Source: a virus (lineage: Duplodnaviria > Caudoviricetes). From it: 64,000 nucleotides of DNA. Positions 34,405 to 49,417 of this stretch are shown one piece after another; the stretch's first letter is position 1, and each line of letters starts with the position of its first letter. Location: positions 1-64,000 of the IMG/VR virus record IMGVR_UViG_3300021400_000126, one strand, 5' to 3'. The notes below the pieces were generated by a model. It had not been told where the DNA came from. It worked only from the letters and a program-made list of their open reading frames with translations, and did not search any database. Made by a program: the position numbers and the translations under genes.

Positions 34405-34707
34405 ATAATAATGCATATATTAATTGCTTGGTGCGGTGGTTGGGTTTTAGGTCACGGACTTAGGTATGAAGAAGGAGATATTATAATTATTGGAGCAATT
34501 TTAATTGGATTGGCAGTATATTTAGGAGTTAAATAATGATTTTTATAGCAGAAGATAATCCAAAATTATATGTTTAGGTAAATAATTATAGTGAATTGGA
34601 AGAAAAAATAAAGGAACTTGGGAATCCTAATTATGATTATGAGGTTATTATAGAGCCTTTTTTTGAAAAACCTTGGATTGTAGGGAGGATACGAGCAATA
34701 AAAAAAC

Positions 34708-34789
34708 ATTCGTCTTTTGATTTTAAAAAAACTTTTGGATTATTGTTATTGTTATATTCGTCTTTTGATTTTAAAAAAACTTTTGGATT
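34708..34789. repeat. 34-bp perfect direct repeat
   Basis: ATTCGTCTTTTGATTTTAAAAAAACTTTTGGATT at 34708 and 34756. Confidence 0.95.
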
Positions 34790-35119: not shown

Positions 35120-36315
35120 TTGTTAAAATATAGTCAAACACTTTTTCTTCAAGCATTTTGTTAAACAATAGACAAACACTCTTTCCTATAATTCACTTGT
35201 TTAATCAATCAACCAATGTTACTACTACTAAATTATTGCGCTCTAACAAAACAGACGAAAAAAATCAGTAACTTTTCAGGTTTTGTTAAATACTTAACAA
35301 AAGCTAACCAGCTAGTAACGGCATTGACAAACTATTAACAATTGCTAGCACGAGGCTTGTTAGTTATTTAACAAATAAGGTTTATGTACAAACATTGTTA
35401 ATAACTTAGCAAAGATAGAAGGATAGGTAGGTCAACAAAGGTAGGGAGTAAGGCAAGGCAGGAGAAGTAGAGACAAACCAAAGAGAACAAGAGAAGAAAG
35501 AGAACAACACAATAACACAATCAATCAACAACACAATGATAATAATATAATAATAAATATGTATGTACTATGGTAGGGTATGGGTAGGGGTGTGTAAGGT
35601 AGGGATGGGGTATCCACTGTGCAGGTATCTATCTAATAACTGTAGAAGCTTGTTAAACAATTAACAATAGAAGATTGTTAAGATGTTAACAACATGCATC
35701 CGGACGAGCAGGAAGATAGGTCATGATTAAGCTGTCAATGAAGCGAGCTTGTTAAAGTATTAACACATTGATAAGATAAGCGAATAGATAAAATAAGAAG
35801 ATTGTTAATAAAATAACTTTTAAATAATGATTGACATTTAGATAAAGATAGTATATAATAAAAGAGAACTAAGAGTTAACCACTAAACACAGCCACAAAG
35901 AAAGGACGTGCAAACAATGCGTAAAGCTATAACAACAATCATCATTACAGTAATCATGTTAACTATGTTCTATGTATCAGCATGGATCGAGGCACACTAC
36001 ACAAGAGAGGCAACAGTCATTGAAGTAAATGATAACATTGTAACTGTTGTTGATGATACTAATAACTTTTGGTCATTTGAAGGAACTGAATTCAATGTCA
36101 ATGATAAAGTAACAATGACAATGGATTCAATGAATACAGACTTAAACATCTATGATGATGAAATAATAAATGTAGAAAAGAACTAATAATTAATATTAAG
36201 AACTCTTTAATTAGACTTAATTAAAGAGTTCTTTTTTTGTACTATCAAGAGATAGTAAGATAAAAGCTTGTTAAGTCAACGAGTCAATGAAGCGAGATTG
36301 TTAAACATCTAACAA
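35120..36315. promoter_or_regulatory. array of Rex-operator-like palindromes TTGTTAA-N4-TTAACAA
   Basis: Perfect at 35283, 35650, 35675; one mismatch at 35357, 35395, 35749, 36298; weaker at 35120, 35158, 35324, 35802. Confidence 0.75.
35908..36186 (+). CDS. hypothetical membrane-anchored protein
   Basis: Consensus promoter at 35831, N-terminal hydrophobic segment, downstream hairpin AAGAACTCTTTAATTA/TAATTAAAGAGTTCTT plus U-tract. Confidence 0.65.
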   Translation: MQTMRKAITTIIITVIMLTMFYVSAWIEAHYTREATVIEVNDNIVTVVDDTNNFWSFEGTEFNVNDKVTMTMDSMNTDLNIYDDEIINVEKN

Positions 36316-36975
36316 ATAGATAATAATAAATATAATAAGATAAGTAAACAATACATAAATGTATTGATAGATGTAAATATAATACACTTATAGTTATTAC
36401 TATTGAACCTCGCGGGCGGCGGCTGGGCGGCCGAAAAATTATACCACATGCCGTTGCCATTTGTCAATTAGGAAAATGTAACAAAAAAACAATTAAATAA
36501 TTATCCCATTTTGTGCAATATTTTTTTAATAAACCGGTTGACAAAATAAATATCTGATGATATAATGAATATAACAAAAGAGATAAGGACACAAAAGAAA
36601 GGGAGTAAAAAATGACAGTATATAAAGTATTTGAAAAGTTAGGAAAAGAAAAGGTTTGTAGAATGACTACTGAAAACATTGAAGAAGCTAAATCTTACGT
36701 TAGATATTTAAGAGCCTGTTATCGTAGAACTTGGATGGAAGAAAGAGTTGAAGATTCCTCTTTATAAAAAAGGAAGTGATAAAAATGACTAAAAAACAGA
36801 AAAAAGCACAGAATAACACAAATAGAGTTTTTATCTACATGAACACAGGAACACGCACACATAAAACAAAAAAAGACTACAATAGAAAAGAAAATAAAAA
36901 AATTTGTAGAAAAGCCTTGACAGAATATTAAAAAGAGAGTATAATCAAGATAACAAAAGAGAGGAGGACTAAAAA

Positions 36976-37281
36976 ATGAAGAAAAGTAGCCACTGGAAAT
37001 TAGAAAGAAAAGAAAGAGCAAAAATCATCGCTCAGATCGGGAAAGGTAACATTATTAAAGAAGTTGAAGTTGATAGAAATCATCCTAACGGACCTGAAAT
37101 CCATAAAATCAGCGACACAGGGATTATCACAATCTTCAATAAAAGAACTAAAAAAATGATTACTCAGTTAATCGCAAGACCTGGACAGATTAGAAGATAC
37201 TTTAATGAAAATGAAATTATCCCTACTGGATTACTTGATTTAGCAAGAGAGCATCAGAAAATGGCTTATAACATGGCTTAG
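36976..37281 (+). CDS. hypothetical early protein
   Basis: TTGACA-N17-TATAAT at 36917, GGAGG RBS, ends TAG plus hairpin. Confidence 0.75.
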   Translation: MKKSSHWKLERKERAKIIAQIGKGNIIKEVEVDRNHPNGPEIHKISDTGIITIFNKRTKKMITQLIARPGQIRRYFNENEIIPTGLLDLAREHQKMAYNMA

Positions 37282-37381
37282 AAGAAAATAAAAATTTTCT
37301 TCTTTTCTTTAAAAAAATGCTTGACAAAATTCAAATCATCGGTTATAATAAAGACAGATAAAAGAAAGGGAGGTAAACCAA

Positions 37382-37534
37382 ATGAAAAAGACAAGAGACG
37401 AAATGCTTACAGATATCATCAGAAAATGGGGATTTGAGAATGCGGCGACTATCACCTTCGCAACTCTCATGGACGACAGTAAGATTTCTGAAAGAGCCTT
37501 ATACGAAGCCTACAGAGGATTCATGAGCCTGTAG
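37382..37534 (+). CDS. 50-aa early protein (paralog of 38728..38880)
   Basis: Promoter at 37321, GGAGG RBS; MKKTRDEMLTDIIRKWGFE; ends TAG. Confidence 0.75.
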   Translation: MKKTRDEMLTDIIRKWGFENAATITFATLMDDSKISERALYEAYRGFMSL

Positions 37535-37575
37535 GCTCTTTTTTTATTGTCGGGCCGGCTGCGCACGGGGCAGCC

Positions 37576-37755
37576 GGTTAACTGCAACTAACTTGGGTTC
37601 GGCTTTTCTAACTTGAGTTAGTTAAAACTAATCTGAGTTAGATCCTTCCCAAAATGGTTAGTCATAACTAATCCCAATTAACCATAACTAACCTCAGTTA
37701 GTTATAGCTAATTAAAGTTTGTCTTATTTAACTCAAGTTAGTTATGTCTATATCA
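37576..37755. repeat. nine tandem 20-bp units, each with a GTTAG-N6-CTAAC-like palindrome
   Basis: Exact 20-bp period from 37576; arms conserved, N6 spacers differ. Confidence 0.85.
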
Positions 37756-37885
37756 AAATTGACTAGTTAAAAAATTACCCTTCAAACTGGACAAAAATTT
37801 ACCCTTTGACAACAATTTTTTGCATGGTACAATTTATTGCCATAGTGTATAATAAGGACAATTAAAGAAAGGGAGGACCGGATCG

Positions 37886-38353
37886 ATGAAAAAAATTGAA
37901 GCTGAAATCAGAATTAACTACACATTTGACAATAACCGCAAAGGTGCTAAATATACTTTGAATGGTCTTAATTGGATGAATCACGGTGAATTTGCCGAAA
38001 TTGTCACTAAAAACATCTTAGGTTTTGAATCTGTTAAAGATGCTAATACAGCTTTTGATAAAGGCTCTGACATCCCCGAAATCAAGGCTTCTGTAAAATC
38101 TAGCAAAGCCAGTTTAACAAGCATGAAACTTGCTGATACTTTTGAAGAAAGTATGAATAAATACTTCAAAAGAACACATTCAGAAATTTTCATCTATACA
38201 GTAATCATTGATGAAAATGCTACTCTTTACATGATGAATGAAAAAGAATTTAGACTTTTCATGATGAATTTTAGTAGCCTTAATGAAAGAAAGGTTATCC
38301 GCTTTAAAGCCACAAGCGGAAAAATGATAAAATTTCTTGAGAGTCTTGCTTAA
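37886..38353 (+). CDS. hypothetical early protein, possible PD-(D/E)XK-like fold (distant paralog of 39288)
   Basis: NHGEFAE...KDANTAFDKGSD...SVK versus NRGEIFE...KDNIPFTDDGD...QIK. Confidence 0.65.
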   Translation: MKKIEAEIRINYTFDNNRKGAKYTLNGLNWMNHGEFAEIVTKNILGFESVKDANTAFDKGSDIPEIKASVKSSKASLTSMKLADTFEESMNKYFKRTHSEIFIYTVIIDENATLYMMNEKEFRLFMMNFSSLNERKVIRFKATSGKMIKFLESLA

Positions 38354-38727
38354 AGGCTCTTAAGAAACTAACCAAAAATTTACCTATCAACAGCAAAAAA
38401 TTGCATGGTAACAAAAACCGGTATGTGATATACTCTAGATAGTTCAAGAGAGGAGGTACACAAGATGTACAAAGAGATGTTTGTAGAATACTTATTACCA
38501 GGAAACCCAATTACACAGTCAGAGCGGATGAGCTGGGAAGCCTTCTGTGACTTCTGCACATGGTGGGGAGTTGAAATCCTCTTCTGTTGTGCCACTGATG
38601 ACCCGAGGGTGAATGTGGAGTGATCCACATCCCCTCAAAAATAAATTTAAAAAATTTTAAAAAATGTCTTGACAGATTTTAAAAAATTTGATACTATAGA
38701 GTCAGAAAAAGAAAGGGGGTAACAAAA

Positions 38728-38880
38728 ATGACAAAGACTAGAGATGAGATGCTTACAAACATCATTAGAAAATGGGGATTCGAGCACAACTTCACAATCG
38801 ACTTCGCGGTTGCTATGGAGGACGCCCACTTCACAGACAAGATGCTCACAGACTTATATAGAGGATTAATGGACTTATAA
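38728..38880 (+). CDS. 50-aa early protein (paralog of 37382..37534)
   Basis: MTKTRDEMLTNIIRKWGFE; ends TAA. Confidence 0.75.
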   Translation: MTKTRDEMLTNIIRKWGFEHNFTIDFAVAMEDAHFTDKMLTDLYRGLMDL

Positions 38881-38959
38881 GGTCCATTAATTTTTTGTCG
38901 GCCCGCGGGCCGCCGGCGCAGCCGGAGAACCATTATATCACACCTCTCGAGTTTTGTCA

Positions 38960-39184
38960 ATAGGCAAATTATACAAATTTACACCCCAATTCTTTCCCAA
39001 AATTCTCTGTTTTGCACAAAGACCAATAAAAAAATCAACCAATTTTTTTTGTAAAAACTGCACAAAAACATTCAGCTTTATTGTGCAAAATTTTACCTCA
39101 TTTTTTGTTGATTTTTCACAAAAGAATTCCAGTTTCTTTGTGCACATTGACAGTCCGCAAAATTTCCTTGTGCAAATTATACAA
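38960..39184. promoter_or_regulatory. cluster of degenerate 17-bp TTGTGCA-N3-TGCACAA sites
   Basis: Sites at 38960, 39003, 39049, 39081, 39105, 39138, 39168 in a non-coding gap. Confidence 0.6.
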
Positions 39185-39287
39185 TAAACTACCCCTAAAT
39201 TGCCTTCCGGTTTGTGAGGTATTTTGTTTGACAAGTCCCCTCATCCGTGCTATAATCTAATCAAGATAAAGAAAGGAGAACAAAGAC

Positions 39288-39746
39288 ATGACAAACACAG
39301 TATTATTCGCACATCTGATCGAGGGATATAACAAGTTAGCTTTCACTCACAACTACATTTATGGCTTCTGTTTCCAGAACATGGTCTATATGGTCAAGGC
39401 TACCGCCGAAGATATGCCTTTCGTTCTGAAACTTGACAAGGCAAGCCGTGGGGCTGGATATGCATTAAGGTTTAAGCCTAACAAGGCTCAGAAAACCTTC
39501 CTTCTTGCCAAAGGTGCTACCGCTATATGCTCCAAGGAATTCTTCGAAGCAACTGTAAAAGAAAGCAAATATAATAGGGGTGAAATCTTCGAAAAGATGG
39601 TCACTGAATTTTATGGTCAGGTTTGGGAAAAGGATAATATTCCTTTCACAGATGACGGTGACCTTACAGTTGACGGTGTAGCATATCAGATTAAATTTGA
39701 AAAAGCTACATTCACAAATGAGAAATCCCTTGCAAGGATGATGTAG
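39288..39746 (+). CDS. hypothetical early protein, possible PD-(D/E)XK-like fold
   Basis: Promoter at 39228, AAGGAG RBS; TAG stop lies in the loop of an 11-bp hairpin. Confidence 0.75.
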   Translation: MTNTVLFAHLIEGYNKLAFTHNYIYGFCFQNMVYMVKATAEDMPFVLKLDKASRGAGYALRFKPNKAQKTFLLAKGATAICSKEFFEATVKESKYNRGEIFEKMVTEFYGQVWEKDNIPFTDDGDLTVDGVAYQIKFEKATFTNEKSLARMM

Positions 39747-39820
39747 CATCCTTGCAAAATTTTTCTTGACAAAATAATAAAAATAGTATATAATTTATAT
39801 ATAGAAAGGAGATATGGAAC

Positions 39821-40282
39821 ATGGGTTTAGATAAAGCGATTTTTTATGGGAAAGAACATAGGCATCCCTATTATAAAGCAAAAGCTGTTTCTCCTACCTG
39901 CCGAAACCATGGAACTTGTCCTTGGTGCGAAGCAAACAGAAAATATAAGTATATTAGAAAAAATAAACAAACATTAAAAGAATTAAAAAATTTCAAAAAA
40001 GGTATTGACATTTAAAAAATCCTGTGCTATAATTAAGACAACAAAAGAAAAGACACTTAAAAAGAAAGGGGAACTTACATGAGATTAGTTCATTACATCG
40101 TAGAAAAGACAGATAAGACTCAGTTTGAAACTACTAGCTACGCAGTTGCTACAAAAGATGGCAATCACATCGTTAAGACTTTCTTAACAGATATTGATGA
40201 AACAACAGACAAACAGAGAAACGAGCAGAAAGCACATCGTGCAAAGGTTCGTGAGGTCCTGCGGAAAAAGAGAGATGCATAA
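39821..40282 (+). CDS. two small early genes (39821..40015 with CRNHGTCPWC motif; 40079..40282)
   Basis: Each has its own TTGACA/TATAAT promoter and RBS. Confidence 0.7.
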
Positions 40283-40595
40283 TCTCTCTTCTTTTTTACC
40301 CTTGCGGGAATTCGCCCGGGCACTGATTTGACCCGGCCCGCCGCTGCCCTAATCTTTCATTATACTACAAAACGGATCTATGATCAATAGGCAGAATTAC
40401 CAAAATATTTTGTGCATTTTGTCTATTGTATTTTTTTAAAAATCTGATATAATAATAAGTGTCAAGGGAAAGGAGTTAAAAAATAAAAATAAAAAAAAAT
40501 TAAAAAAACTCTTGACAAATAAAAAAACCTATGATATAATAAAGGTACAAAGAAAGAAAAAACAAAATCTTAAAGAAAGAAATGAGGTATGTATT

Positions 40596-40940
40596 ATGAC
40601 AAAAAGAGAAATGTTTGCTGAGATTCGTAAGGTTGTTGCTGATAATGCTGAGATGGTAGCTTTTATCGACCATGAAGTAGAGCTGTTGAACCGTAAGTCT
40701 GGCGGTCAGCGGAAACCTACTAAGACTCAGTTAGAAAATGCTGAGTTTAAGGCTGAGATTGTTGCTTTCTTAGGTGAGGTTGGAACTCCTCACACCATCA
40801 AGGAGATTCAGGCGAATGTCCTTAACATCGCAAATCTCACCAATCAGAGAGTAACTCACATGCTCACTGATTTGGTTAAGGATGGAGTTTTAAATAAGGA
40901 GTATGTAAAGAGAACTCCTTACTATTACATTGCACAGTAG
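40596..40940 (+). CDS. winged-helix DNA-binding protein, MTKREMFAEIR family copy 1
   Basis: GAGGT RBS; C-terminal TIKEI...TNQRVTHMLTDLVKDG.L.K wHTH pattern. Confidence 0.8.
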   Translation: MTKREMFAEIRKVVADNAEMVAFIDHEVELLNRKSGGQRKPTKTQLENAEFKAEIVAFLGEVGTPHTIKEIQANVLNIANLTNQRVTHMLTDLVKDGVLNKEYVKRTPYYYIAQ

Positions 40941-41086
40941 CCCTAATAAATGGGGCGGTCATCGCAAGGTGGCTTGCCCCATGGGCTCGCCCGGCCGATT
41001 TTTCAAATGAAAATTAAAAATTAGCAGTTGACAAATTTTTTAAAATATGATATAATAAATTTACAAAAGAAAAAGGAGGAAAAAAC

Positions 41087-41603
41087 ATGACTATTAAACC
41101 TTTAACGTATGAAGAATTAATTTCTTTAGCCCTTGAATATTATGAGAAGGGCGGAGATGGAGTTTATGAATGTTGGGATGAAAAATATTTCAATGAGTAT
41201 GTAGAAACTTTTGGCCCCATTTATAAAAGCAATGCTCTTGCTATCTTTGAGTATGACTATGAAATCCGCAAAGATTTTGAAGCCACAATTTGGTAAGATT
41301 TTTTAAAATCATTATTCATTTTTAAATAAAAGAAAGTAGGTGCTATTTATGTGCGGAGAATATCGGCTCTATTCAAGATTAGAAGATGGTGAAACAGTTT
41401 TAGAGTTATGGGGCGGTAGTACTAAACACCCCGATAGTATTTTCTTCTTTTCTGATTTCAATAAAACAGATTGGATTGATTATCAGAATCAGATTTTTCA
41501 GTGGATTTTAGAATGTGCTAGTAAATTGACTCTTCCTGTTCATGCTTATTACCTTACAGAGTGGGCAATGGAAGGATACAAGGCACAAAGGGGATTAAAA
41601 TAA
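41087..41603 (+). CDS. two small acidic early genes (41087..41296, 41340..41603)
   Basis: Promoter at 41028, AAGGAGG RBS. Confidence 0.65.
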
Positions 41604-41917
41604 ATGGGGGGCACCCCCATTTTTGCCCGGGCCGCCGAGCGGATCCGCCCTAAAAAAAATAAAAAAAAATTGAAAAAAGTGTTGACAAATGAATTAATCT
41701 TTGCTATAATTAGTTCAGAAGGTGAGGGAAGGAAGCAAGGTAACCCCCAAGACGCAAGATGTCGCAGTAAGACTTCCTTGATAAAGACCCACCACCGCAA
41801 GCCTAAGTCTTACTTTGCGGTATATAAATGTGAGGCAACATAGCACAGAGTCTGGAAGTGCTAGGCTGGTAAGATGGACTCTTTCTTTTAACAAAAGCTA
41901 GAAAAGGAGATTTTCAA

Positions 41918-42580
41918 ATGGAAAAAAATACTTACTTCATCGTTGTTGACACAGAAACTACAAATTCCATTGATGACCCGTTATGCTATGATGTTGGATT
42001 CGCAGTGATTGATAAGACAGGGCATGTTTATGAAAGTCATTCTTTTGTAGTAGCTGATATCTTTCTTGATAAAGAGTTGATGAGTTCCGCATATTTTGCT
42101 GATAAAATCCCGCAGTATTGGCAGGATATCAAACAGGGCAAAAGAATTTTGAAATCATTTTTTAATATCAAAAAGGCTTTTGCTCAGTGTGTAAGAAAAT
42201 ATAAAGTCAAGATTGTTTTAGCACATAACGCACGTTTTGACTACAGGTCTTTAAATCTGACTCAGCGGTTTTTGACTTCTTCAAAATATAGATTCTTCTT
42301 TCCTTTTGGGGTTGAGATTTGGGATACTTTGAAAATGTCAAGAGAAGTCCTCAATAATCTTGAGGAGTACGGAGAGTTCTGTTATAATAATGACTACTTA
42401 ACAAAAAGACTTTGCAAGCGGTTTACCGCAGAAATCATTTACAGATTCATCACTGGAAATAATAGCTTTGAAGAAAGCCATACAGGACTTGAAGATGTAT
42501 TGATTGAAAAGGATATTTTCGTTTTCTGTATTAATAGAAAGCCTAATATTAATGGTGCTTTGTGGAGTAAGGCTTGCTAG
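41918..42580 (+). CDS. DEDDh 3'-5' exonuclease (paralog of 47029)
   Basis: VVDTET, AHNARFD, IWDT, HTGLED. Confidence 0.85.
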   Translation: MEKNTYFIVVDTETTNSIDDPLCYDVGFAVIDKTGHVYESHSFVVADIFLDKELMSSAYFADKIPQYWQDIKQGKRILKSFFNIKKAFAQCVRKYKVKIVLAHNARFDYRSLNLTQRFLTSSKYRFFFPFGVEIWDTLKMSREVLNNLEEYGEFCYNNDYLTKRLCKRFTAEIIYRFITGNNSFEESHTGLEDVLIEKDIFVFCINRKPNINGALWSKAC

Positions 42581-42853
42581 TCTTGCCCCACATTGCGGCC
42601 GGGCCGCCACAAAAATTTTCAAAAAACCCCTTGACAAATAATTTCATTTGTATTATAATAAAGACGTAAAGAAAAGGAGATAAAAAATGAATGAAGAATT
42701 AATTATTAATGATTTATTGCAGAAAATTATTTCGCATAGCTCTAGATGTGCTCATTGTAAATATTTGCGTCAAGAAAATGATAATTGCTATTGCTTTTTT
42801 GCTTATGCTTGTTTAACACAAGATTTTTATTATTGGGATGAGGAGGAATAAAT

Positions 42854-43054
42854 ATGATTTGTGAAAACTGTAATAAATGTTGTCTTTGTGCGGATTGTGT
42901 AAGAAATAAAAACTATGCGGTAAATACTCCTAATCCTTGTTTCTGTGCTGATTGTGACATTTGTAAATATCACGACATGGCAACAACTTTTTGTAATCAG
43001 TACTTGACAATTAAAGACCTTGATGATATAATAGAATCAAGAAAGGGGGCATAA
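42854..43054 (+). CDS. Cys-rich small protein
   Basis: GAGGAGG RBS; 11 Cys in 66 aa. Confidence 0.6.
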   Translation: MICENCNKCCLCADCVRNKNYAVNTPNPCFCADCDICKYHDMATTFCNQYLTIKDLDDIIESRKGA

Positions 43055-43058
43055 GCCT

Positions 43059-43388
43059 ATGACAAAAAAAAAGCTGATTGAAAAAATTATGCGTGAATGT
43101 GAGCAGGACGGAGAGCCTGTAACAAAAGAAGAAGCCATAGAGATGGCAGAAATGGAAATGAAAGCTAATCAGACTCGCCACTATGAAAAGTCTGATAAGC
43201 CTAGAAAGCCTTCCTCTCGTGTGCGGAAAGTCGATACCACAAAAAAGAGAATCCTCGATAATTGTAGAGTTCTCATTGAGGGTATGGGTGGTGTAACTGT
43301 TAATGTAAAAACTGAAACTGAAGTGACTTTTGTCTTTGATGATGCTGAATACAGTTTGAGACTCGTTAAGCATCGCCCTAAAAAGTAG
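43059..43388 (+). CDS. hypothetical early protein (paralog of 45560)
   Basis: Shared KSDKPRKP..RVRK.D..K block. Confidence 0.75.
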   Translation: MTKKKLIEKIMRECEQDGEPVTKEEAIEMAEMEMKANQTRHYEKSDKPRKPSSRVRKVDTTKKRILDNCRVLIEGMGGVTVNVKTETEVTFVFDDAEYSLRLVKHRPKK

Positions 43389-43505
43389 GGGTAACACCCC
43401 TACCTTCGGGCCGGGCCGAAAATTTTTCGAATAAATTTTTCAAAAAGCCCTTGACAAAAAATCTTTTTTCTGATATACTAAAAACATCAAAAGGAGGTAC
43501 AAAAT

Positions 43506-43757
43506 ATGAATTGTTATTTTATCAATGATTTATTAAATTGTAGTGATGAAGAGCTTAGGGAAATTGATAAAACAATTGCTGAAGAGTTAGAAAATAGAAA
43601 AAAATTAAAAAGAAAAGAAGCTTTTGATACCTTAATGGATGCTCTTGAAACTATGGCTAGAGAATATCCTTATGAAGTATTTGATATTGAATCTTCTAGC
43701 GGTGAGTGTGCCACTCTTGATTGGGAAGATTTATACAAATCTCTTCTTGAATGCTAA
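43506..43757 (+). CDS. small acidic early protein
   Basis: Promoter at 43451, AAGGAGG RBS. Confidence 0.7.
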   Translation: MNCYFINDLLNCSDEELREIDKTIAEELENRKKLKRKEAFDTLMDALETMAREYPYEVFDIESSSGECATLDWEDLYKSLLEC

Positions 43758-44406
43758 TGTGGGGAAATATTTTCCCCACATTTTTCATTTTTGGTCCGGG
43801 CGGCCGATCCGCCCTAACCCCTCATTATAACATAAATAGCCGCTGCCTGTCAATCGTCAAACCGCACAAAATTCTTCTTAATTCTTTGTGCAATATTCCC
43901 CTATTGATTTTTATAAAAAATTATGATAAAATATATTTGAAGATAAGGAAAGAGCAACAAAATTGAATAGGGTGGTCGGCAGAGCATAATCGCCTATCGG
44001 TCACTTGAAAGACAGACAGCTCAAAAAAATCTTCAAAAAATTTAAAAAAACTCTTGACAAACTCAAAAGCCTATGGTATAATGAGTACAGAAAGAGAGAG
44101 GAGATGGAAAACATGAGAGACCCACCGATAAACCAATGTCGAACATAACGGAACTGTTGTAACGCACCCCATCCTGAAAAGAGGTGTTCAAATATGAAAT
44201 TGTTAAAATTTAAATATAGGCTCTAAGCGGAAGTCGCTCCGCTATAACAGAAATGGCGATAGGGAGCAAAAAGGGTGGCCACTGGCCATGGTCACCCTCC
44301 CGAAAAAAATTTAAAAAAACTCTTGACATTTTAAAAATAAAATGTTATAATCAATATGTAAGATAAAGAAAGGGCAAAGCCCCCAACAAGAAAGGATGTG
44401 CTAATT

Positions 44407-44760
44407 ATGACAAAGAGAGAAATGTTCGCAGAGATTCGTAAGGTAGTTATCGACAACGCAGAAATGGTAGCCTTCATTGACCACGAGGTTGAGTTACTGA
44501 ACCGCAAGAGCGGTGGAACTCGCAAGCCTACCAAGACTCAGCTTGAAAACGCACAGTTTAAGGCTGATATCCTCGCCGCTCTCGCTGAGGTTGGCAAGCC
44601 TGTAACCATTAAGGAACTGTGCGAGGTCTGCCCCACTGTCGCAGGTCTGACTAATCAGCGTATTACTCACATGCTGACTGACCTCCGCAAGGGCGGAGAG
44701 GTCACTCGGGAGTACATCAAGAGGGTTGCTTACTTCACGGTAGGCAACGAGGGAGAGTAA
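44407..44760 (+). CDS. winged-helix protein, MTKREMFAEIR family copy 2
   Basis: Near-identical N-terminus to 40596 and 45124. Confidence 0.8.
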   Translation: MTKREMFAEIRKVVIDNAEMVAFIDHEVELLNRKSGGTRKPTKTQLENAQFKADILAALAEVGKPVTIKELCEVCPTVAGLTNQRITHMLTDLRKGGEVTREYIKRVAYFTVGNEGE

Positions 44761-45123
44761 TCTCCCTCCCCCTCCTACATAAAGCACTCTTAGCTATGCT
44801 AAGGGTGCTTTTTTGTGTGCTCGGCCCGCCGACACTCGTGCCGGCGGGAAATTTCCATTATACCACACCCCGCACTTTTTGTCAATAGGAAAGTTGCACA
44901 AAGTTCTCGTTCAAAAATTCCCAAAATTAGTGCAATATTCCAACTTGATATTTTTAAAAAAATTTGTTATAATTATTATACAAGGTAAGGGAAATGAAAA
45001 GTAGCTACTAAAAAATTTCTCAAAAAAATTTAAAAAACCTATTGACAAAATAAAAATCTTATGATATAATAAATACATAAAGATAAAGAAAACAAATCTT
45101 ACAAAAGAAAGGAAGTATGTACT

Positions 45124-45465
45124 ATGACTAAGAGAGAAATGTTTGCTGAGATTCGTGCTATCGTTGTTGATAATGCTGAGATGGTTGCTTTTATTGACCA
45201 TGAGATTGAGTTACTCAATCGTAAGAGCAACGGTAAGAGAAAGCCTACAAAGAATCAGCTTGAAAATACTGCTTTTAAGGCTGACATTATCGCTCACCTT
45301 GCGGAGATTGGTACTCCTAAAACTATCAAGGAACTTCAGGCTGAAGTTGATGGTCTTGGCGAACTGACCAATCAGAGAGTCGCTAGGATGCTCACTGACC
45401 TTGTAAAGGAAGGTACTCTTAATAAGGAATACGTAAAGAGAGTTCCTTACTACTTCGCAGCTTAG
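45124..45465 (+). CDS. winged-helix protein, MTKREMFAEIR family copy 3
   Basis: As above; ends TAG TAA. Confidence 0.8.
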   Translation: MTKREMFAEIRAIVVDNAEMVAFIDHEIELLNRKSNGKRKPTKNQLENTAFKADIIAHLAEIGTPKTIKELQAEVDGLGELTNQRVARMLTDLVKEGTLNKEYVKRVPYYFAA

Positions 45466-45559
45466 TAATCATGGGGGAGTTAATCTCCCCTAATTTCCCC
45501 TTGACAACAGACAATAAAGTGTGCTATAATTTAATCAAACAATAGAAGGGAGATTAAAA

Positions 45560-45961
45560 ATGTACACAAATATCAATGGTAAAAATATCAATATTCCAGA
45601 TAAGGAAATTGATAAATTAATAACTGTTTTAAAAATTTCACATGATGAAGCGGTTCAGACTTGGTTAGAAGATGAAGGTTATCTTGAAAATCCCATAGTA
45701 GAAGAGTTAACACAAAAGGCAAAGGCAAACAAGATTAGCCGTGAAGCCAAATCAGATAAACCGCGAAAACCCACTAAAAGAGTGCGGAAACCCGATGAAG
45801 AAAAGGAAAAATTGATTGAAATTCTTTCAAATTCTTTGAAAAATGCGGGATTTGAGCCACAAATCACCAATAAAAGTAAGATTATTGAGTTAAATATTGG
45901 TGAAAATCATTACAAAATTGATTTAATTAAACAGAGAACAAGCAAAAAAGCAACAAAATAG
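45560..45961 (+). CDS. hypothetical early protein (paralog of 43059)
   Basis: Promoter at 45501, GGGAG RBS. Confidence 0.75.
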   Translation: MYTNINGKNINIPDKEIDKLITVLKISHDEAVQTWLEDEGYLENPIVEELTQKAKANKISREAKSDKPRKPTKRVRKPDEEKEKLIEILSNSLKNAGFEPQITNKSKIIELNIGENHYKIDLIKQRTSKKATK

Positions 45962-46146
45962 GCTGGTTTTTAAAAAATTAGCCTATTTTTTATTAAAATC
46001 AGATAAAATTCACCACTTTAACTCGCTAAAGCGCGCCCGGGCCCGCATTTTTTCGCACTTTTTTCAAAAAAACCCTTGACAATCAAATGAGTTAATGCTA
46101 TAATAGCATTGTAAACAAGAGAGAGAATAAGAAAGGAGCAGAAACC

Positions 46147-46404
46147 ATGAAAAACTTCTTTAGAATTGAGTCAGGCTACAAATTTGAATGGAATGATTTA
46201 AGATGCTTCATTACTGTTGTTAATGTTATCTTAATCATGATGTATGGTTTATCTATTGCTTGGTTTGGTCTTGGTGTTGCGGTGATTGGAGTTATCAAGG
46301 ATTTAACTACAGATAGACGCATTAACGGCTTAATCATGCATCTTGCAAATGTATCTTTAAATATTTACTTCTTATTGATTTATTACGGAAAAATAGTTTT
46401 ATAA
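46147..46404 (+). CDS. small multi-pass membrane protein
   Basis: Hydrophobic segments; promoter at 46076, AAGGAG RBS. Confidence 0.7.
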   Translation: MKNFFRIESGYKFEWNDLRCFITVVNVILIMMYGLSIAWFGLGVAVIGVIKDLTTDRRINGLIMHLANVSLNIYFLLIYYGKIVL

Positions 46405-46481
46405 AAATTTAAAAAACCTATTGACATCCGTATAGAGATGTGATATAATACAGACAGATAAGAAAGAAAGGGGTTTTGAAA

Positions 46482-46919
46482 ATGAGAATTTGTTTTGATA
46501 TGGATGGAACAATTGCAAATCTGTACGGTGTTGATGGTTGGCTCGACATGATTTTAGCACATGATGCAACTCCTTATGCACAGGCAAAGGTTCTGCTTAA
46601 CATGAACGTATTAGCAAAAATCCTTAATAAACTTCAGAAAAGAGGTTATGAAATCGGTATCATCAGCTGGCTTGCTAAAGGAAGTACCACAGATTATGAT
46701 GAAGCTGTTACAAGAGCAAAAAAGAAATGGCTTGCTCAGCATCTTAAAAGTGTTCAGTTTGATTTTATTAAGATTGTAGCTTATGGAACTGATAAAAACA
46801 TTGTAGCAACTGGTGAAACTGATATTCTTTTCGATGATGAGGAAAGAAATAGAAACGGTTGGAATGGGGTTGCTTATGATGTTGATAACATCATCGAAAT
46901 CCTTAAGGGTTTAAACTAG
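46482..46919 (+). CDS. HAD-superfamily phosphatase/nucleotidase
   Basis: FDMDGT motif I, ILFDD motif IV. Confidence 0.8.
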   Translation: MRICFDMDGTIANLYGVDGWLDMILAHDATPYAQAKVLLNMNVLAKILNKLQKRGYEIGIISWLAKGSTTDYDEAVTRAKKKWLAQHLKSVQFDFIKIVAYGTDKNIVATGETDILFDDEERNRNGWNGVAYDVDNIIEILKGLN

Positions 46920-47028
46920 ACCTTTGAGGATTCGGCCCGGCCCACCGCATAATTTTTTAAAAAAAGTATTGACAAATAAATAAATCTATAGTATAATTAA
47001 GACATCAAGAGAAAGGAAGGACATAAGA

Positions 47029-47721
47029 ATGAACGTATTAGTAATTGACACAGAAACCGCAAACTCCATTAATCAGCCTTTACCATACGATGTTGGTTAT
47101 GCTATTGTTGATACTGTAACTGGTGAAATTCTCACTCAGAAATCTTTTGTAGTTGCGGAAATCTTCCTTGATAAAGATTTAATGAACAGTGCTTATTTTG
47201 CTGAGAAAATTCCTAATTATTGGAAGGATTTAAAGAAAGGCTCACGAGTTATGAAATCCATCTGTAATATTAGGAAATCTATCTGCTCTGACATGAAAAA
47301 ATACAACGTGAAAAAAGTTGGTGCTTATAACATGGGCTTTGACAATAGAGCAACAAAAAATGACATTCGCTACATCAGCGGTTCATTAATTAAGTGGTTC
47401 TTCCCCTACGGAACAGAACTGTTCTGCATTTGGAACATGGCTTGTTCTTCTATTCTTAGCACCAAAGAATACATTGATTTTGCTATGAATAACAATTTTG
47501 TTTCAGAGTGCGGAAACATTCAGACTAGTGCGGAGATTGCCTACCGCTTCTTAACCAATGATGTTTCTTTTGAAGAAGACCACACAGGTTTAGAAGATGT
47601 TATGATTGAAATTGAAATCATGCTTGCAGTACTTCACTCTAATTTAGAGTATGATTCAAAAGTAAGTGGTGGCTGTTGGTGGAAAGTTCAGAAAGCTAAA
47701 AAAGAATTGTGTAGAGGTTGA
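47029..47721 (+). CDS. DEDDh 3'-5' exonuclease (paralog of 41918)
   Basis: VIDTET, AYNMGFD, HTGLED. Confidence 0.85.
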   Translation: MNVLVIDTETANSINQPLPYDVGYAIVDTVTGEILTQKSFVVAEIFLDKDLMNSAYFAEKIPNYWKDLKKGSRVMKSICNIRKSICSDMKKYNVKKVGAYNMGFDNRATKNDIRYISGSLIKWFFPYGTELFCIWNMACSSILSTKEYIDFAMNNNFVSECGNIQTSAEIAYRFLTNDVSFEEDHTGLEDVMIEIEIMLAVLHSNLEYDSKVSGGCWWKVQKAKKELCRG

Positions 47722-48421
47722 GCCTTTACGCAATTCGACCGGGCCAAAAAGTTGAAAAAACCTCTTGACAACCGCATTTTTCTATGATATAATACAGATA
47801 ACAAAAGAAAGGAGATAAAAACATGGATGAGATTGTAAGAGAAGATGCTTTAACTGAAGCACAGATTTTTGAAGATAGAGCCTATCACTATTTTCAAAAA
47901 TACAAGAATGAAACTGATGTAGATGAAATTGCTTACATTTTTTCAAAAGCCTTTAAGGATATGTTTTGGCGGATTGCAGAAGATTTTGAGGAGGAATAAA
48001 CATGAAAAAATTTTACTGTCCTGTGAATGGGTGGGATTGCCCTTACTTCAAGAAAGATGGTTCTTGTGCTATTGTTGACAAAGGCGAAAATCCTGTTTTA
48101 GAGTGTGATGATGCGGCAATGTTTTGGGAGGAGGATGATGATTACTTTGTAGAGGAATAAACCCCTCTACAAATCGCCCGGGCGCTCGTCATTTTGCACA
48201 AAAACTTTCTTATTTTTTGTGCAGTATTACCACTTGTATTTTTTTAAGAATCTGTTATAATTATAAGTGTCAAGGGGATGGAATAGTAAAGAATAAAGGA
48301 AGTTACTCCCCCTAAAAAATTTAAAAAAATTTTTTAAAACCCCTTGACAAACTTAAAACTCTATGATATAATAACAATGTAAACAAAAGAAAACACTAAA
48401 GAAAGAAATGAGGTATGTGTT

Positions 48422-48781
48422 ATGACAAAAATGACTTATGTACAGGCTATTGATTTTGCAGTTGAGATGATTCAGAACGGCGAAGCTAACTTCAACGGCT
48501 TTACGGCTTCGGAGTACATTGAGAAGCTCGATGCTCTCAAGGCTCAGTTGGCGAAGCGTGCGGTTCGCAAGCCTTCCAAGAATCAGCAGGCTAATGAGGG
48601 TGTAAAGAATGATATCCTTGATATCCTCTATGCTAACGAGGGTCTGCGTTGCGGTGATATTGCTGAGCCTCTTGGTATCAGCGGTCAGAAGTGTTCTGCT
48701 CTGCTTCGTCAGCTTGTAGATGCTGGCTTGGTTGAGAAGTATACTGAGAAGCGTGTTACTTACTTCAAGAGGGTTGCCTAG
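48422..48781 (+). CDS. winged-helix protein, diverged member of the same family
   Basis: RKPSKNQ..NE..K.DIL...CGDIA...SGQKCSALLRQLV..G.V.K; leader AAAGAAAGAAATGAGGTATGT shared with 40596. Confidence 0.78.
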   Translation: MTKMTYVQAIDFAVEMIQNGEANFNGFTASEYIEKLDALKAQLAKRAVRKPSKNQQANEGVKNDILDILYANEGLRCGDIAEPLGISGQKCSALLRQLVDAGLVEKYTEKRVTYFKRVA

Positions 48782-49031
48782 CAACCCTCCCCCTTGTGGG
48801 GCGCGCCCGGGTTAATTGGGGTTTTAAAATGGATTCTTCCTTACTGACCTGAATGTGTGACCGGGCCGCGCCCAACCGCGGCCCTCCGATTCTACCACAA
48901 AAATAGCTCAATGTCAAATTTTTTTCAAAAAAATTTGCACAAAATTTTTACCTAAAATCCCAAAATTTTTGTTTATTTTGCCATCTTGTGCAGCGGGACG
49001 CGTTATGGTATAATAATAGGGGGATGCATCT

Positions 49032-49169
49032 TGCTTCATCGCTTTAAAGTGCTAAAGTATGCCAAAACACTTCAATGGTTTAAACTTCTACACTTTAGCA
49101 CTTTAAAGTATTAAAGTAGGCAACGGCACTTCAACACACTAAAGTGTAGAAGTTTAAAGTCCTGAAGAA
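49032..49169. promoter_or_regulatory. array of YACTTTA-N6-TAAAGTR-like palindromes (HisR/YerC, TrpR-family-like)
   Basis: Sites at 49032, 49040, 49068, 49091, 49099, 49127, 49150; lone copy at 46014. Confidence 0.65.
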
Positions 49170-49417
49170 AGCCTCGCGAGCCCCATTGGCGCCATATGCG
49201 ATGGCCAGCCAGAACATGAACCAAACTAACGTATATGCATTGCGGCGCCAAAACTTCATCATATGGCCGCACTTCGTGAAACTTTACTTGAAAATTTTAA
49301 AAATTTTTTGTATAATTAAAAAAACGACTTTTTTAGGCAGCGGCTCCTTGACTTTTTAAAAATTTTTTGTTATAATATTTATATAATATGATATATATAA
49401 AAAAGGAGATATATTTT

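Follow-up and report, generated by a model that had tools for sequence, protein, structure and literature searches.

Arrays of putative host-regulator operators in the early region of a large SPbeta-like phage

The window analyzed here is the first 64 kb of the 133,306-bp phage genome IMGVR_UViG_3300021400_000126, and its early region contains four non-coding tracts, T1 to T4, in each of which a different motif is repeated. We propose that regulators encoded by the host, and absent from this virulent SPbeta-like phage, bind at these clustered sites; T1, T2 and T4 would titrate them, and T3 would wire phage promoters to one. To this reading, which is built on sequence comparisons, we assign a probability of roughly 0.4. 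That host regulators bind the arrays seems probable to us, and host proteins are the most likely binders because three independent host consensuses (Rex and HisR, and LexA in relatives) are matched exactly and the phage has no homolog. Titration is put forward more tentatively, as the leading function for T1, T2 and T4. For these three we favor sequestration over an operator-type control because the sites are numerous, of good quality and tend to avoid promoters, and because all candidate binders are repressors.

An earlier note, made from the letters of the window, had described four non-coding tracts with 7-11 copies of a palindrome in each. All four lie where it had placed them and its counts are roughly right, except that the T3 array has only 5-6 copies, the remainder being scattered at promoters. 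Its remark that arms are conserved while spacers vary also holds, with the information content concentrated in the arms and close to zero across the spacers. The randomized background that it had called for was provided by 60 first-order Markov resamples of the whole 133-kb genome, and all four arrays cluster far above it. The Rex pattern reaches 8 sites per 800 bp against a resampled maximum of 2, the HisR pattern 6 sites per 200 bp (maximum 2), the T2 unit 7 per 200 bp (maximum 2) and the T3 motif TTGTGCA 5 per 200 bp (maximum 3). No credible open reading frame (ORF) was found inside the tracts, even with TAG read as sense, and Rfam and tRNA scans gave no match. T1, T2 and T4 carry many consensus-grade sites uncoupled from promoters, as decoy arrays do.

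The elements of T1 are the following (nt, nucleotides).

35120-35412, unstranded: T1a, six Rex-type boxes (TTGTTAA-N4-TTAACAA) at 35120, 35158, 35283 (perfect), 35324, 35357 and 35395
35420-35640, plus strand: spacer between T1a and T1b, purine-rich and of low complexity, with (AAT)n-like and G-run segments
35650-35819, unstranded: T1b, four Rex-type boxes at 35650, 35675 (both perfect), 35749 and 35802
35831-36186, plus strand: consensus promoter (35831-35859) and gene of an 89-amino-acid membrane protein (35917-36186), inside the T1 tract
36268-36315, unstranded: T1c, boxes at 36268 (half-degenerate) and 36298 (one mismatch)

Altogether, T1 comprises 12 Rex-type boxes over 35.1-36.3 kb, of which three are perfect, four have one mismatch and five are weaker. 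The resemblance to Rex operators, which the earlier note had proposed, is confirmed by the clostridial Rex box TTGTTAANNNNTTAACAA, an 18-bp palindrome TTGTTAA-N4-TTAACAA, as given in the passages of PMC5367854 and PMC9600882 that cite Ravcheev et al. 2012. We predict that T1 is an array of operators of Rex, the NADH/NAD+ sensor. Clostridial Rex operators have the same 18-bp palindrome, but a host genome has 0-3 perfect copies and its operators stand alone or in pairs at the promoters of NAD-linked and fermentation genes, whereas the 12 boxes of T1 crowd a non-coding stretch of 1.2 kb that lacks target genes of this kind. A perfect box is present in only 18 of 121 sampled Clostridia genomes, with a maximum of 3 per genome, and T1 has as many perfect boxes as the richest of them. 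Host Rex operators overlap or adjoin the promoter of the gene that they regulate, whereas in T1 only two boxes touch promoter-like sites: the final box of T1b (35802) ends 11 nt upstream of the -35 of the 35831 promoter, and box 36298 overlaps the -35 of a weak promoter-like site at 36309-36336. A six-frame search of the whole phage revealed neither a Rex DNA-binding domain nor a Rex CoA-binding-type domain. AT-rich spacers are common in the Rex boxes of relatives and less so in those of this phage.

Some observations were made around T1. The gene of the 89-amino-acid protein is conserved at 11 of 39 Rex-array loci. The G-runs (GGG/GGGG) of 35420-35640 form a possible G-quadruplex; the counterpart of this spacer in the related locus L040 is (CAAA)n(AAT)n, and a similar simple-sequence segment is seen in relatives. 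Just upstream of the tract, a unit of about 26-50 nt (TTCGTCTTTTGATTTTAAAAA...) is directly repeated at 34693-34777 and kept as three copies in the distant relative L037 (1240-1340).

HisR-type sites are found at two places.

49032-49167, unstranded: T4, six overlapping HisR-type boxes (CACTTTA-N6-TAAAGTG) at 49032, 49040, 49068, 49091, 49099 and 49127
46014-46033, unstranded: lone HisR-type box (one mismatch), preceding by about 50 nt the -35 in the promoter of the gene at 46147-46404

The phage has seven such sites, with 1-3 mismatches each and six of them within 115 bp; the T4 boxes together form a 40-nt imperfect inverted repeat. Overlapping staggered operator copies are known for the binding of TrpR-family proteins. 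T4 matches the published HisR consensus of Bacillota, cacTTTAnnnnnnTAAAgtg (20-bp palindrome cacTTTA-N6-TAAAgtg), which has been validated on R. gnavus HisR (PMC9413887), so the likeness to HisR operators proposed in the earlier note is borne out. T4 is, by prediction, an array of operators of the histidine repressor HisR. The Bacillota operators share its 20-bp palindrome but lie upstream of histidine biosynthesis or transport genes or of hisR, whereas T4 has no histidine gene nearby, being flanked by a winged helix-turn-helix (wHTH) gene and a coiled-coil protein gene, and its six overlapping boxes lie within 115 bp of a phage leader. This leader is transcribed, T4 extending from +10 to +125 relative to the TG-extended promoter 48986-49015. 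The complete phage genome encodes no TrpR-family (TrpR/HisR) protein. A GC-rich stretch (49180-49285) that separates T4 from the next promoters holds 3-5 repeats of the palindrome CATATG(G/C), which are kept in L005 (15880-16040) and flagged as arrays in L002, L045 and L051.

The arrays are also present in other phages. Homologs of a DnaQ-like exonuclease (phrog_20187) served as anchor to locate 54 related loci (L001-L054), which were surveyed along with this phage. Rex arrays were counted 7 times, HisR arrays 7 times and canonical LexA-box arrays 3 times, whereas control consensuses for cre, Fur, Spo0A, CtsR, CIRCE, TnrA, NrdR and IdeR, eight patterns in all, showed no clustering. The conservation that the earlier note had suggested looking for is hence seen for Rex and HisR, with LexA in addition. 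Even relatives with an anchor protein of only 42-50% identity have Rex arrays. Among 2.9 million viral contigs scanned, 78 loci had tandem Rex cores; 37 of them have 6-13 boxes per 800 bp, often with HisR or LexA arrays alongside, and at L058 about 12 Rex boxes are interleaved with about 8 LexA boxes in 1 kb. The LexA (Cheo) arrays occupy the equivalent non-coding region of relatives, and array types swap for one another at the same genomic position. Over all loci collected, relatives and loci from the array scans together, Rex, HisR, LexA and T2 sites have no positional peak and largely avoid the core promoter. The canonical Gram-positive LexA (Cheo) boxes, CGAACNNNNGTTCG, come as 3-8 per array at L012 (12940-13340), L014 (1805-1925), L043, L058 (540-1150) and L064. 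Repeats of the type AATTTYTAGAAAATT in L014 and L048 were considered as CodY-box arrays but are not claimed as such, as they deviate from the CodY consensus at the centre.

The source genome is complete, with direct terminal repeats and a CheckV estimate of 100%. It belongs to a large, SPbeta-like phage, presumably infecting gut or rumen Clostridia, and has about 30% G+C, a split PolIII-alpha about 40% identical to SPbeta YorL and Enterococcus phage proteins, an anaerobic NrdD and a sigma-70-type factor. The phage is probably virulent, because a search of its genome found no tyrosine recombinase and no large-serine recombinase/integrase; on the same ground a temperate lifestyle, in which LexA or Rex would serve prophage induction, was rejected. 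No close relative was found among GenBank phages, and the relatives originate in rumen and gut metagenomes and in Clostridia metagenome-assembled genomes (MAGs). The earlier note had also stated that none of the regulators it named is encoded in the window. This is true of the complete genome, which has no Rex, TrpR/HisR, PucR-type or clear DtxR homolog. For the DtxR family, a single sub-threshold match (15 bits, to the N-terminal domain) was obtained with a MarR-like wHTH protein of 125 amino acids encoded outside the window, at 125975-126352.

T2 differs from T1 and T4 in its regularity.

37586-37741, unstranded: T2, seven or eight CTAAY-N4-RTTAG palindromes repeated every 20 bp exactly; a terminator lies on one side and the promoter of a 155-amino-acid protein gene on the other

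Units are located at 37588, 37608, 37628, 37668, 37688, 37708 and 37728, and each 20-bp unit is made of CTAAY-N4-RTTAG and 6 variable bases, arranged head-to-tail, with the consensus TAACTAAC-N4-GTTAGTTA. In the viral contigs, tandem T2 units occur at 99 loci, with at least four perfect units at 56. Two arrays of this type keep an exact 20-bp period over 38 (L177) and 18 (L158, 4150-5050) perfect units, and one L158 block retains the GTTAG half alone, giving a direct-repeat array. The early proteins of this phage do not co-occur with T2 arrays at the 99 loci. The downstream 155-amino-acid protein (P0001) was rejected as cognate binder, since it matches no family and has homologs at only 4 of the 99 loci.

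The earlier note had likened T2 to DtxR/MntR operators, a likeness that does not hold for the first and is only partial for the second. We take the DtxR/IdeR operator consensus to be a 19-bp palindrome, TTAGGTTAGSCTAACCTAA, with half-sites 1 bp apart. T2, written as CTAAC-N4-GTTAG or as GTTAG-N6-CTAAC, has the same half-site letters but a different spacing, and the IdeR pattern (up to 4 mismatches) gave 1 match in 902 kb and no cluster; T2 was rejected as a DtxR/IdeR box. An MntR operator spans 18 bp, as a pair of 9-bp inverted repeats; its positions -7, 6 and -5 are T, A:T and G/T, and the spacing of cooperative sites is 19 bp (PMC11882963). In the reading GTTAG-N6-CTAAC, positions -7 and -6 of T2 are T, position -5 is A and the period is 20 bp, not 19, which fits this geometry partially, and no Mn-transporter context was found at T2 matches on Clostridia chromosomes. 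A LexA variant was discarded too, the GTTCG half-site being in the outermost unit only and the genome having no cluster of canonical LexA boxes.

The best lead for the T2 binder, which we hold with modest confidence, is a host repressor of the TetR family, because operator-like sites stand beside TetR_N, FMN-reductase and GNAT genes at five Clostridia loci and the phage encodes no TetR. At these loci (L263, L264, L268, L269 and L272) the sites equal the T2 consensus and are single or paired over promoters, and the adjoining genes code for TetR_N (two loci), FMN_red (two loci) and GNAT (one locus) proteins. The Clostridia site AACTAAC-N4-GTTAGTT is often paired about 25 bp apart over a promoter, an arrangement that, in this small sample, is that of a TetR-family operator.

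T3 behaves differently, being built into promoters.

39013-39174, unstranded: T3 array, TTGTGCA/TGCACAA half-sites in both orientations, exact at 39013, 39059, 39081, 39138 and 39168, degenerate at about 39107
36511-36517, plus strand: T3 site, 20 nt upstream of the -35 of the 36538 promoter
40410-40416, plus strand: T3 site, 9 nt upstream of a TTGTAT -35
43886-43892, plus strand: T3 site, 11 nt upstream of a TTGATT -35
48195-48223, unstranded: inverted pair TGCACAA-N15-TTGTGCA, upstream of a TTGTAT -35
48936-48992, unstranded: T3 pair, whose right copy is the -35 of the TG-extended promoter reading into T4

In L001-L054 and this phage, the distance from the start of TTGTGCA to the -35 hexamer downstream is 16-17 nt for 93 sites and 26-27 nt for 30, and an inverted partner stands 39-40 or 49-50 nt upstream. 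With all loci collected (663 sites), T3 has positional peaks at about -50 (151 sites) and about -60 (62 sites), whereas the other motifs are flat. T3 is not chiefly a decoy array, as the motif is mainly promoter-coupled, centred around -50 or -60, and is also present upstream of host genes. The array at 39.0-39.2 kb represents a lineage-specific expansion; it is missing from the orthologous spacer of L003 and L005, although L035, L037, L039 and L040 have T3 arrays as well.

Of 401 Clostridia genomes, 70 have the inverted pair TGCACAA-N15-17-TTGTGCA and 8 its reversed control. Because this enrichment is comparable to that of Rex, T3 is very likely the site of a host regulator to which phage promoters are wired. 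Intergenic host pairs lie upstream of pckA (three genomes), an EF-G paralog (two), an M23/G5 peptidase (two) and a MalK-type ATPase, and these adjoining genes are uninformative on the identity of the regulator. An identical TGCACAA-N16-TTGTGCA precedes the gene of GTP-dependent PEP carboxykinase in Clostridia genomes G063, G126 and G180 (L258 and L259), which makes it a candidate operator of an uncharacterized gluconeogenesis regulator of Clostridia. For T3 the earlier note had suggested PucR/CdaR operators; PucR-type regulators are not represented in the phage, which has no HTH_30 domain. CcpN binds the operator TRTGHYATAYW, with two sites near the promoter of gluconeogenic genes (PMC3526287). 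Some phage T3 copies (TGTGCAATATT) match this consensus at 10 of 11 positions, with an ATAT part that is not conserved in host copies, and CcpN is a weak lead. Matches to CcpN and DnaA boxes being partial only, T3 was not assigned to either. A -35 element for a phage sigma factor was dismissed, as there is no conserved -10 at a fixed distance, and so was the 152-amino-acid protein encoded downstream (P0002) as cognate binder, which matches no family and whose L003 and L005 orthologs lack the array upstream.

We propose the following scenario. The many consensus-grade sites of T1, T2 and T4, lying off promoters, would be landing pads that capture host repressors. Each replicated genome would add about 25 such sites, and the repressors would be titrated. 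As every identified or candidate binder is a repressor, titration would give one coherent effect, namely the derepression of regulons for redox and fermentation, for histidine supply and for a TetR-controlled reductase, with no phage protein needed. T3 would link phage promoters to a host regulator. In its widest form, the proposal is that the phage reprograms its host with DNA alone: replication-multiplied operator arrays would sponge several repressors at once (Rex, HisR and TetR-type, and LexA in relatives), switching on redox, amino-acid, stress and SOS regulons, with panels that differ by phage and match what each needs from its host. We regard this wide form as possible and rather doubtful.

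Several points weigh against the proposal. Whether about 25 sites per genome copy outcompete the host operators depends on protein numbers. Between the T1 clusters, the simple-sequence core is AT-rich and looks like a replication origin. The extended T2 palindrome occurs in 23 of 251 Clostridia genomes, fewer than its reversed control, so that it shows no overall enrichment; several of the Clostridia matches are terminator hairpins, and the host assignment of T2 rests on about five loci. Relatives have further array types without a host match (GTATACGTATAC, CAGCTGC, TGCATAA, CCGATCG and CATATGG), which would fit fast-evolving phage proteins equally well. Some relatives, such as L040, fuse Rex-like and HisR-like half-sites into a longer palindrome with a 44-bp period, which could indicate a single different binder. 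Finally, the Rex and HisR repertoire of the host is deduced; MAGs holding relatives of the phage do encode Rex in 4 of 5 cases and a TrpR-family HisR in 3 of 5, which speaks for the proposal, but the binning of phage contigs into MAGs is unreliable.

One could also assume that host regulators bind the arrays as sensors instead of being soaked up. Rex at low NADH, HisR at high histidine and the others would then throttle early transcription, replication or DNA entry according to the state of the host. All the regulators concerned respond to a signal, and the action of Spo0A on phages phi29 and Nf is a precedent. For T3, which stands at a fixed -50 or -60 of dozens of promoters, this sensing or promoter wiring fits better than titration. 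A protein bound to the T4 leader could block elongation there, and the two Rex boxes at the 35831 and 36309 promoters also speak for sensing. However, the absence of a preferred position for Rex, HisR, LexA and T2 boxes speaks against a switch, for which at least ten consensus-grade sites are far more than required, and most strong early promoters have no such box at all. As a general explanation we find sensing somewhat unlikely.

Another hypothesis is that phage proteins are the binders, the likeness to host operators being a coincidence or a deliberate mimicry. The candidates would be proteins without known family or the wHTH paralogs, of which the early region has four, in addition to the protein encoded at 126 kb.

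40596-40940, plus strand: wHTH paralog 1, a candidate binder under this hypothesis only
44407-44760, plus strand: wHTH paralog 2
45124-45465, plus strand: wHTH paralog 3
48422-48781, plus strand: wHTH paralog 4, HTH_24/MarR-type, directly upstream of T4

The position of paralog 4, a wHTH gene flanked by arrays in L008, the many unmatched array types of relatives and the lack of overall T2 enrichment in host genomes are in line with this hypothesis. On the other hand, three of the four early paralogs have a near-identical recognition helix and cannot account for four motifs, which led us to reject the idea of one paralog per array. wHTH paralogs are universal in relatives and their helix types vary (TNQRITHML, SGQKCSALL, STQKMGALL, TCQRASAIL) without tracking the array types; helices differ between relatives with the same arrays, and Rex and HisR arrays recur unchanged. 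Arrays also exist on contigs with no detectable homolog of these proteins nearby, and no ORF family lies within 5 kb of Rex arrays at more than 17 of 39 loci. An exact identity to three independent host consensuses is moreover improbable by chance. Altogether, phage-encoded binders appear unlikely.

The T1 region could alternatively be a replication origin or a partition or packaging site, with iterons flanking an AT-rich unwinding element, and T2 a centromere-like phased array. The box clusters do flank a low-complexity core with AT-rich and G-run segments, as in L040, and the periods of 44 bp (L040) and exactly 20 bp (T2, L158) resemble those of sopC or parC-type arrays. However, the arrays have no initiator or partition gene beside them and no conserved neighbor gene, GC skew gives no origin signal here beyond transcription strand switches, and the boxes are identical to host operators and exchanged in relatives for LexA, HisR or T3 arrays at the same position, all of which makes this very unlikely. 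That T4, and perhaps other arrays, would be a structured non-coding RNA instead of DNA sites is hardly credible. A TG-extended promoter does precede T4, whose fold surpasses that of shuffled sequence (z = -3.5), but any set of inverted palindromes yields such a fold, Rfam has no match, and relatives carry the same boxes at other positions and orientations without a conserved transcript context.

The early region that holds the four tracts (35-50 kb) contains about 40 small plus-strand genes, about 25 near-consensus promoters (TTGACA-N17-TATAAT) with A-tract upstream elements, and GC-rich hairpins as separators. Four consensus promoters (TTGACA-N17/18-TATAAT) lie on the minus strand, at 36438-36467, 38932-38960, 48889-48917 and about 44870-44900, each immediately to the right of a GC-rich hairpin at a cassette junction and firing leftwards into it; in each module the GC hairpin is followed by ATTATA-N17-TGTCAA-TAGG. 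These promoters may give rise to short RNAs that are antisense or terminator-proximal. The DnaQ-like exonuclease has two paralogs here (41918-42580 and 47029-47721). Small paralogous gene pairs without known family were also observed, at 37382-37534 and 38728-38880 and at 43059-43388 and 45560-45961; the latter pair has in common a basic motif, SDKPRKP..RVRK, similar to a segment of the wHTH paralogs.

Phages take over their hosts via proteins and small RNAs, and single host regulators are borrowed, such as LexA for induction or Spo0A in phi29. If our proposal of host-regulator sites holds, a dense panel of operator arrays for several host repressors would represent a different principle. The arrays are uncoupled from promoters and kept within a large family of phages from gut and rumen, and they would point to DNA-based titration or to a sensing of several signals (redox, amino acids, damage). 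They would also point to the host clade, reveal operator motifs of uncharacterized Clostridia regulators (T2 and T3) and could be natural parts for synthetic repressor sponges.

A parallel can be drawn with other known systems. In phage T5, the first-step-transfer DNA has repeats at its injection-stop signal, together with boxes for host proteins, and their function is not settled. As here, direct and inverted repeats form a block poor in genes within the early or pre-early region of a virulent phage of large size, but those of T5 are not known to correspond to several host repressor consensuses. Multicopy operator plasmids titrate repressors. Repeated decoy sites for a transcription factor have been studied in synthetic yeast constructs (PMC3322331). 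As in such decoy arrays, high-affinity sites without a target promoter can sequester a regulator and shift the expression of its regulon; those cases are synthetic or plasmid-borne, whereas the effect in this phage is deduced. Our literature search found neither a natural phage decoy array nor a paper on multi-regulator operator arrays on phage DNA.

The closest system is found in two virulent phages of Bacillus, phi29 and Nf, whose DNA has Spo0A boxes, sites of a global regulator of the host (Castilla-Llorente, Meijer and Salas 2009, PMC2731898). There too, a lytic phage has sites for a host regulator that it does not encode, and binding couples the phage to host physiology. In phi29, however, a handful of sites overlap and repress early promoters and origins, whereas the present phage has 6-12 consensus-grade sites per array, mostly off promoters and for several regulators, predicted to be Rex, HisR and a TetR-type repressor in place of Spo0A. 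Host-regulator sites on a virulent phage are hence known from phi29 and Nf, and the new elements here are the placement of the sites relative to promoters, the tests of T2 and T3 on host chromosomes and the calibration of site density.

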